Assembly: GCF_055900595.2 (NCBI RefSeq)
Contig: NZ_CM148325.1
Strand: one strand, 5' to 3'
DNA length: 64,000 nucleotides
Positions 59,322 to 60,294 of the stretch are shown piece after piece. The position numbers and the translations under genes were made by a program. Position 1 is the stretch's first letter. Every line of letters begins with the position of its first letter. The notes under the pieces were generated by a model. The model ran no database searches. It saw nothing but the letters and a program-made list of their open reading frames with translations, and was not told where the DNA came from.

Positions 59322-60294
59322 TTATTTACTGTTGTATAACAAAGTTATAACCCCATCCACTACCTGAGCCATTTTCTGATAATTCAATCTGTCTGCGGTA
59401 TCACCGGGCAAGTGGTATTGTTTATTACGATAAAAAGCGGTGTCGGTAATCATTACGGCGGGAATATCGTGTTGCCAATAATTAAGGTGATCAGAGAAAT
59501 CAATACCGGGAATAAACCCTGGGGCATTCATAGAATAAACAGATAAATCCTGAGATGACAACAATGCCGCTTTTAGCTGACGAACGGCGTTGATATCCTG
59601 CATTCTGCCGACCACGGCAATAAAGTCTCCCCGATCGGGATAAAGCTAGGACATTGCCGGGTAAGGATAATCCTGGCTTCCAGGCGCAGAGTCGTAATAG
59701 CCAATCATCTCCAGAGAAATCATTAACTGTACTGGGCGATTAAGCGAAGCTGCATGTACCGCGCTCCCCATTTCATTGCTACGAAAGAAGGGCGGTTCTT
59801 CCGACGCATAGGCGACCAGCTGCACGCCTGTTTTCGGCGCTTGCTGCTGTAACAAACGTGCCAGTTCAAGTAATCCTGCTACGCCGCTGGCGTTATCATC
59901 CGCGCCAGGCGTATAGGTTAATTGATCGTTTTCAAAACTGCTGGCAGAGTCATAGTGCGCACCAATAATAATCAGCGGTCCATTGGCAAGACCATAATCA
60001 GCTACAATATTTTTGTAGGGGCCATCCGTAATGGGGACGTCCTGCGCGGTAACTCTGGCACCGCTACTGATAAAGACCTCTTTTATATACTCTGCGGACC
60101 TTTTCAGATTATCAATATTGTCGGCACTACGTGGATGCACAGTTTGTGTAAGATAACGAACTGTTTTTTCTAATTGCTCAGGACTTGCGTGTCGGGGCGT
60201 TGGCGGTAATGCATTGACCCAGGGTTGATAAAAAATAATAAAAGGAAGTGATAGTAGTAATGATATAAAACAAAGAGGTGTTATTTTTTTTCAT
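59322..60294 (-). pseudogene. yfbL: M28-family peptidase YfbL, disrupted by an internal in-frame TAG and by an A8 tract after the native ATG that displaces the start
   Basis: Track ORFs 59646-60140 and 59322-59615 are in the same frame, separated by one TAG (...PYPAMS*LYPDRGDFIAVVGR...). Upstream, ATG+A8 is out of frame with the body; reading it as A7 gives the signal peptide MKKITPLCFISLLLSLPFIIFYQPWVNA and a 323-codon frame. Confidence 0.75.

Follow-up and report, generated by a model that had tools for sequence, protein, structure and literature searches.

Does yfbL still encode a peptidase in this lineage, and if it does not, which mutations broke it? The initial annotation of the window (the whole 64,000-nucleotide stretch of contig NZ_CM148325.1, RefSeq assembly GCF_055900595.2, that we analysed) had described the gene as a secreted M28 peptidase inactivated by two independent lesions, i.e., an amber codon within the frame and one A too many in the tract that follows the start codon, with the caveat that the frameshift might be reversible or an artefact of the reads.

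Layout and identity of the yfbL locus

The position and orientation of the gene are those of its orthologues, in the conserved order elaD-yfbL-yfbM-nuoN (nuoN ends at 58649 in the window), and its sequence is 92-99.7% identical at the nucleotide level to annotated yfbL genes; synteny and identity together bear out the name it had been given (Table 1). The family assignment likewise held, with the intact sister allele described below matching Peptidase_M28 (PF04389) over residues 95-317 (E = 7.7e-25), and a PF04389 match is on record for the 164-aa fragment as well. The body frame, which closes with TAA at 59324-59322 on the minus strand, has one interruption, the TAG between ...PYPAMS and LYPDRGDFIAVVGR..., and deleting one A of the A8 tract gives MKKITPLCFISLLLSLPFIIFYQPWVNA... 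and a 323-codon frame in which this TAG is the sole break. On the sequence repaired in this way, alignment to the Aeromonas aminopeptidase (1amp/3b3t) and to 2ek8 placed the predicted metal-binding and catalytic residues at H113, D133, E165-E166, E195 and H294, the last of these in a YHLPGDT motif whose counterpart in 2ek8 is the ligand motif YHTPNDT; the placement uses what we take to be the ligand numbering of 1amp. A scan of 58000-62500 with Rfam found no RNA family, promoter-like sites occurred at the shuffled expectation (5 versus 4.3), and a terminator scan returned four weak terminator-like hairpins (4 versus 1.3 in shuffled sequence), none of them at the end of yfbL.

Table 1. Features of the yfbL locus, in window coordinates.
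Feature	Position	Strand	Remarks
yfbL pseudogene	59322-60294	-	973 nt, versus 972 nt (323 codons) in intact alleles; Pfam PF04389 (intact allele)
Native ATG start codon of yfbL	60292-60294	-	Kept; from sequence and alignment
A8 tract of yfbL	60284-60291	-	A7 in intact alleles; +1 frameshift right after ATG
38-codon out-of-frame ORF	60178-60294	-	Read from the native start when the tract is A8; closed by TGA
ATA codon	60282-60284	-	Ile4 of intact YfbL; NCBI PGAP start for A8-only alleles
164-codon yfbL fragment	59646-60140	-	GTG to TAG; N-terminal two-thirds of the M28 domain, without signal peptide
Amber TAG of yfbL	59646-59648	-	In place of Trp216 (TGG); altered base 59647
Former Dcm site in yfbL	59646-59650	+	CTAGG here, CCAGG in intact alleles
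C-terminal remainder of yfbL	59322-59645	-	In frame, codons 217-323, with YHLPGDT motif and last zinc ligand
97-aa GTG ORF	59322-59615		Called by gene callers within the C-terminal remainder
elaD-yfbL spacer	60295-60728	.	yfbK reduced to its two ends; K-12 longer by 1,556 bp
yfbM	58716-59219	-	
elaD	60729-61895	-	

Both lesions are carried by a widely sequenced clade I clone

Given that callers restricted to ATG, GTG and TTG starts call the 164-aa product (GTG 60140 to TAG) only when both lesions are present, we looked for this exact product in public assemblies. It was found on 287 public contigs, in 372 blocks of the assembly collection (NCBI, ENA and Logan assemblies). Moreover, two relatives from the clone that we fetched (L008 and L009) carry both A8 and TAG in a 6.5-kb stretch that is nearly the same as that of the window; their accessions are AP025754.1, a 5.36-Mb chromosome (99.97% identity), and CAUANF010000007 (99.9% identity). 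A sequencing or assembly error, with A7 and TGG in the true genome and the lesions arising as homopolymer or base-call artefacts, might be suspected because homopolymer lengths are frequently wrong in long-read-only assemblies and because, at 60698, an A run in the window alone is one base shorter than in all compared relatives. Yet such an error would have to recur on every one of the 287 contigs and in both fetched relatives, and sequencing platforms do not typically produce a substitution such as that at 59647. We therefore consider an artefact extremely improbable, and the caveat about the reads is refuted: the double-lesion pseudogene has become fixed in a clade I clone for which many assemblies exist.

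The NCBI entry of the 164-aa product is BDI51664.1 (locus tag EsCd1KSP079_02706, Escherichia sp. KS167_9B), and KS-P079 is a bovine strain of Escherichia cryptic clade I with a complete genome (PMC10100065). By sequence similarity, the window genome is assigned to this cryptic clade I, in the sublineage with strain KS-P079. This lineage accounts for the fact that the best match to the window among complete RefSeq E. coli genomes did not exceed 99.4% over 24 kb. A Shigella origin, which that figure had led us to suspect, was rejected in view of the uninterrupted gene order of the window (see below) and of the clade I entry.

An intact sister allele gives the ancestral state

Of the 5,426 complete RefSeq E. 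coli genomes searched, 5,353 contained yfbL, with most matches 90-95% identical. The closest intact allele, that of E. coli R32_14_1F (99.7% identity), has A7 and TGG, is annotated as a 323-aa M28 metallopeptidase and lies in the same elaD-yfbL-yfbM-nuoN order as in the window. Over 1,151 nt the two sequences differ at four positions only: A7/A8, TGG/TAG, a synonymous AGG/AGA and an A/C difference upstream. Aligned with this allele, the window gene conforms to the initial annotation in several respects: the ancestral states are A7 and TGG, the frame is split by a single TAG that stands in place of TGG, an A7 tract gives a 323-codon gene, and with A8 the ATG frame is soon closed by TGA, after 38 codons rather than about 40. 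The two lesions are, as had been proposed, independent of one another, each being seen alone in other genomes (A8 with TGG in CFSAN018748 and ST2747; A7 with TAG in E200086, L013 and L014). Each lesion is thus a single event on an otherwise untouched allele, and the one extra coding difference from the intact sister allele, a synonymous one, indicates that the pseudogene is young.

Among intact alleles, dN/dS across codons 29-323 is 0.15-0.29, indicating that yfbL is normally under purifying selection and was formerly functional. Codons 1-28 (60211-60294) present a different picture from the rest of the gene, with a dN/dS of 0.68-0.89, and at least three very different allele classes were observed in the signal-peptide region when the window was compared with L003 and L012 (MKKITPLCFISLLLSLPF, MKKIIFAFIILFVFLLPM and the O157 type). 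Synonymous divergence between yfbL alleles is ~0.12, which looks high for E. coli when set against what we take to be typical core-gene values.

Neighbouring genes

The list of ORFs in the 64-kb window follows what we take to be the K-12 gene order, without interruptions of the size of an insertion element. Between elaD and yfbL, the body of yfbK (1,556 bp in K-12) is missing, and what is left of it in 60295-60728 amounts to two stubs, a 3'-terminal one of ~40 nt and a 5'-terminal one of ~130 nt (72% identity). Similarly, the ~2.5 kb that yfbN, yfbO and yfbP occupy in K-12 has no counterpart between yfbM and nuoN (58650-58715). The deubiquitinase gene elaD has lost 1 nt from an A run near 60734 (GAAAT to GAAT), which creates a TAA, and its product is 388 aa long in the window versus 403-404 aa in K-12 and R32_14_1F; in clone relatives it is 387 aa, or the gene is split (53 + 264 aa, in L009). 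Downstream of the truncated elaD, in DNA that is now non-coding, the window has GGAAAAGAG at 60698, with A4, in contrast to the A5 of 7/7 relatives compared, among them the near-identical L008 and L009; the missing base is either a real slip or an assembly error. As for rbn (ribonuclease BN), it is annotated as frameshifted in R32_14_1F (L001 3412-4316), and the window ORF is open (62083-63018).

Predicted effect of the lesions on YfbL

The TAG removes residues 216-323, which comprise the last third of the M28 domain and, as placed by alignment, the last zinc ligand, His294 of the YHLPGDT motif. The A8 tract, for its part, uncouples the signal peptide and body from the sole ATG. There is consequently no continuous frame across the whole M28 domain, with the TAG parting H294 from the other ligands and A8 detaching the start codon, and the window allele would be expected to give no active YfbL product. 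Judging by its N-terminal sequence, the intact protein is presumably secreted.

The initial annotation had stated, in addition, that with A8 the body has no start before an internal GTG. This stands as far as ATG, GTG and TTG are concerned, none of which precedes GTG 60140 in the body frame; it does not stand for ATA, as the ATA at 60284-60282 serves as the NCBI start in other A8 genomes. Slippage on A8, whether ribosomal or transcriptional, or initiation at this ATA could supply some N-terminal product at a low level, which would be truncated by the TAG anyway. We also considered whether the TAG might be read through or recoded, and dismissed this, codon 216 being invariably Trp in intact alleles. 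To our knowledge, no suppressor context exists for this TAG.

The amber codon lies at a former Dcm site

In intact yfbL, the codon lost to TAG lies in TCC TGG CTT, which contains CCTGG at nt 644-648 of the gene. On the plus strand, the change from CCAGG to CTAGG (59646-59650) is a C-to-T transition at the inner C of CCWGG, the base targeted by Dcm. There are 125 single-base routes to a stop in yfbL, of which methyl-C transitions make up 3/125, and the observed TAG is one of these. According to the summary in PMC9520237, Cherry 2018 found that the inner C of CCWGG changes to T at ~8 times the rate of other C's in natural E. coli. The sequence context argues that the yfbL TAG is a Dcm-site hotspot mutation, and deamination of 5-methylcytosine would be its chemical cause.

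Two predictions of such a hotspot were tested. At Trp25, the other yfbL TGG codon that falls within a Dcm site (CCTGG), TAG was seen in 3 genomes. These three, E. coli 1506, HCP8S3_I1 and MSB1_1D, all have genomes of ~4.55 Mb and may form one clade. At codon 216, conversely, TGA would arise by G-to-A opposite the outer C, which is unmethylated, and would disable the gene just as well; it was observed in 0/3,599 genomes.

Using a 62-nt query confined to the invariant flanks, we found TAG at codon 216 in 11 records, which fall into three haplotype backgrounds (Q, K-12 and P types); these counts of carriers are genomes, not independent events. The Q-type carriers are AST85 and the E200086 group, with ~35 site differences from the window in the 5' two-thirds of the gene; the K-12-type carriers are RM10410 and a7, in which yfbK and yfbN flank the gene; and the P-type carriers are the window's own clade I lineage. 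In RM10410, the TAG base is the sole difference from K-12 in 3,062 bp, so the TAG must have arisen at least twice independently.

Could the TAG of the window and that of the AST85/E200086 group nevertheless be a single ancestral mutation, moved between 5' haplotypes by recombination? The window, R32_14_1F, AST85 and E200086 are identical for ~700 bp downstream of 59647 and mutually closest over 24 kb, and the yfbL region is visibly mosaic, all of which would accord with a shared origin. On the other hand, a single TAG demands that a recombination tract end within 19 bp (59667-59647), the K-12-type carriers already demand independent recurrence, and the Dcm context itself predicts that the TAG recurs. 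We regard shared descent of these two TAGs as conceivable and worth bearing in mind, with recurrence at the Dcm site as the likelier account.

The A tract changes length within the clone

The A7 run is the longest homopolymer of yfbL. A8 was found in 12/468 records with the window-type N-terminal allele and in 10/969 records with the K-12-type N-terminal allele, and A9 in one record with the latter. AST85 has A8 together with TAG, and its close relatives have A7 with TAG. Within the clone, the TAG is constant and the tract is not: the window, L008 and L009 have A8, and L013 and L014 have A7. Since markers 60195 and 58697 group L009 with the A7 members L013 and L014, the tract must have changed length at least twice in the clone. 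The suggestion that A8 is reversible was thus well founded, as some members of the clone have A7 and others A8; given that the TAG persists, however, this reversibility is irrelevant in the lineage. The product of A7 with TAG was found on 2 contigs, and that of A8 with TGG on the window's allele is not on record in the public collection. The simplest reading of the order is that the TAG came first and that the tract drifted afterwards, but the A7+TAG contigs may be revertants rather than an ancestral intermediate, so this order is only probable.

It might be argued that the tract is a phase-variation switch, or a site of programmed frameshifting or transcriptional slippage, and that YfbL is still made under regulation. 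The tract does lie directly after the start codon, A7 and A8 do alternate among very close relatives, thereby toggling the frame as at phase-variable loci, and A8 or A9 recurs in other lineages; in addition, Lys-tRNA slips on A runs. But the TAG downstream bars full-length YfbL in either tract state, and the in-frame length gives no functional protein in this clone, as the A7 members L013 and L014 keep the TAG. Furthermore, frequent switching in mismatch-repair-proficient E. coli would call for a longer tract than A7/A8, and the presence of A7 in ~97-99% of genomes per allele class fits a rare mutation and not a balanced switch. Regulated expression through the tract is thus very unlikely, and drift in a gene already interrupted by the TAG is the reading that we retain.

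Other yfbL losses and their annotation

A partial yfbL, with less than 80% of the query matched, was found in ~38% of complete E. coli genomes (~2,060/5,354 records). Most of these matches come in two pieces with 72% coverage and carry the annotation hypothetical protein or zinc-binding metallopeptidase. In O157:H7, in which we characterised the deletion, yfbL of strain TX 376-2 (L012 1632-2249) has a 326-bp internal deletion (at about nt 263-588 of the gene) as well as frameshifts, and its metal-binding core is gone. In RMDEC465 (L002 3107-3115), the start codon is changed from ATG to ATA, and the gene is again annotated from the downstream ATA.

As to the A8-only alleles of CFSAN018748 and ST2747, NCBI PGAP annotates them as intact 320-aa proteins that start at ATA. 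Such starts at the ATA of Ile4 were observed in the A8 genomes L004, L005 and L006 (1342-2304 in each). The signal peptide of such a product would be missing its Met-Lys-Lys N-terminus, and the ATA start is for this reason probably an annotation work-around rather than biology. Calling A8 alleles from ATA is an annotation habit that hides frameshifts.

Discussion

Taken together, these results indicate that the window yfbL is, with high probability, a young and non-functional pseudogene, in which two separate hotspot mutations struck an allele formerly under purifying selection. According to the history that we propose, the methylated inner cytosine (5-methylcytosine) of a Dcm site, CCAGG on the plus strand and CCTGG in the gene, would have turned into T, changing Trp216 from TGG to TAG and depriving YfbL of the final third of the M28 domain and of the last of its zinc ligands. 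Replication slippage would have lengthened the A7 after ATG to A8, upon which the native start would read a 38-codon nonsense peptide, leaving the body without a canonical start or a signal peptide. The TAG would be the stable and probably older lesion, and the A tract would have changed length at least twice in the clone since then, drifting in a gene that was already dead. Such decay is ordinary, and E. coli has lost yfbL repeatedly.

Selection could conceivably have played a part. In a 2025 preprint (10.1101/2025.09.29.679331), the Keio strains deleted for yfbL and yfbO are described as resistant to phage N4, with sensitivity regained on complementation from a plasmid. The loss of yfbL might accordingly be adaptive rather than neutral, having been selected repeatedly, e.g., by N4-like phages that need YfbL, with the hotspots merely supplying the mutations. 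The resistance of the deletion strains would fit, as would the many routes of inactivation (TAG at Trp216, TAG at Trp25, A8, ATG to ATA and the 326-bp deletion, besides the partial matches in ~38% of genomes) and the fact that the window lineage is also without yfbO and yfbK; moreover, purifying selection on intact alleles implies that the losses are not the decay of an already useless gene. However, the phage evidence is a single unreviewed preprint and was obtained in K-12, and hotspot mutation with drift in a dispensable gene fits the pattern of loss equally well, so that we think repeated selection rather unlikely. More doubtful still is the broader proposal that yfbL loss is recurrent and convergent across Escherichia because intact YfbL, together with YfbO, confers susceptibility to N4-like phages. 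Were it true, the Dcm amber, the poly-A slip, the loss of the start codon and the 326-bp deletion would be parallel adaptive knock-outs, and the elaD-nuoN interval a hotspot of phage-driven gene loss.

The decay of yfbL matters little by itself, adding another pseudogene of a dispensable and uncharacterised gene for a predicted periplasmic peptidase, and its stop codon is already known, as the NCBI pipeline flags the same stop in related genomes. What is new here is the Dcm-site amber with its internal control (TAG is seen, the neighbouring TGA never), the drifting A tract, the caveat about annotation and the possible link to phage N4. With hotspot mutation as the preferred reading, yfbL offers a clean natural case of both classic bacterial hotspots, Dcm methyl-cytosine and homopolymer, in one gene. 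The many routes of loss, together with the N4 preprint, also lead to a testable, if speculative, hypothesis on the role of yfbL in nature.

Comparison with known systems

The K-12 counterpart, YfbL (b2271), is an uncharacterised M28 metallopeptidase encoded at the orthologous locus, where it adjoins yfbM, and its gene is 92% identical to that of the window at the nucleotide level. It has 323 codons, as does the window gene once repaired, and the two share the M28 domain and the predicted metal-ligand motifs. Nevertheless, K-12 yfbL is intact, with A7 and TGG, whereas the window gene is doubly broken; the signal-peptide alleles differ (MKKIIFAFIILFVFLLPM... in K-12, MKKITPLCFISLLLSLPF... in the window); and K-12 yfbL is flanked by yfbK and by yfbN/O/P, which the window lineage lacks. 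The PGAP pseudogenes labelled 'internal stop' (AST85, E200086, RM10410 and a7) carry TAG at the same codon as the window, and AST85 has A8 as well, yet AST85 and E200086 differ from the window at ~35 sites (Q type) and RM10410 and a7 are of K-12 type. In O157:H7, too, yfbL is an inactivated remnant between elaD and yfbM, through a 326-bp deletion and frameshifts in place of the point lesions of the window.

The simple-sequence contingency loci of Neisseria and Haemophilus resemble the yfbL tract in that a homopolymer right after the start varies in length among relatives and sets the frame. Unlike at these loci, the yfbL tract is short, its OFF length is rare (1-3%), and in the window lineage the ON length is still truncated.

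A close parallel to the TAG is found in the Dcm hotspots of lacI, for which Coulondre and Miller reportedly described amber mutations in 1978, and of natural E. coli. As in yfbL, a C-to-T change at the inner C gives an amber codon that recurs across haplotypes, and the adjacent unmethylated position is spared. The difference lies in the strand: in the classic lacI case CAG becomes TAG on the coding strand, whereas in yfbL the predicted methyl-C is on the opposite strand and TGG becomes TAG.
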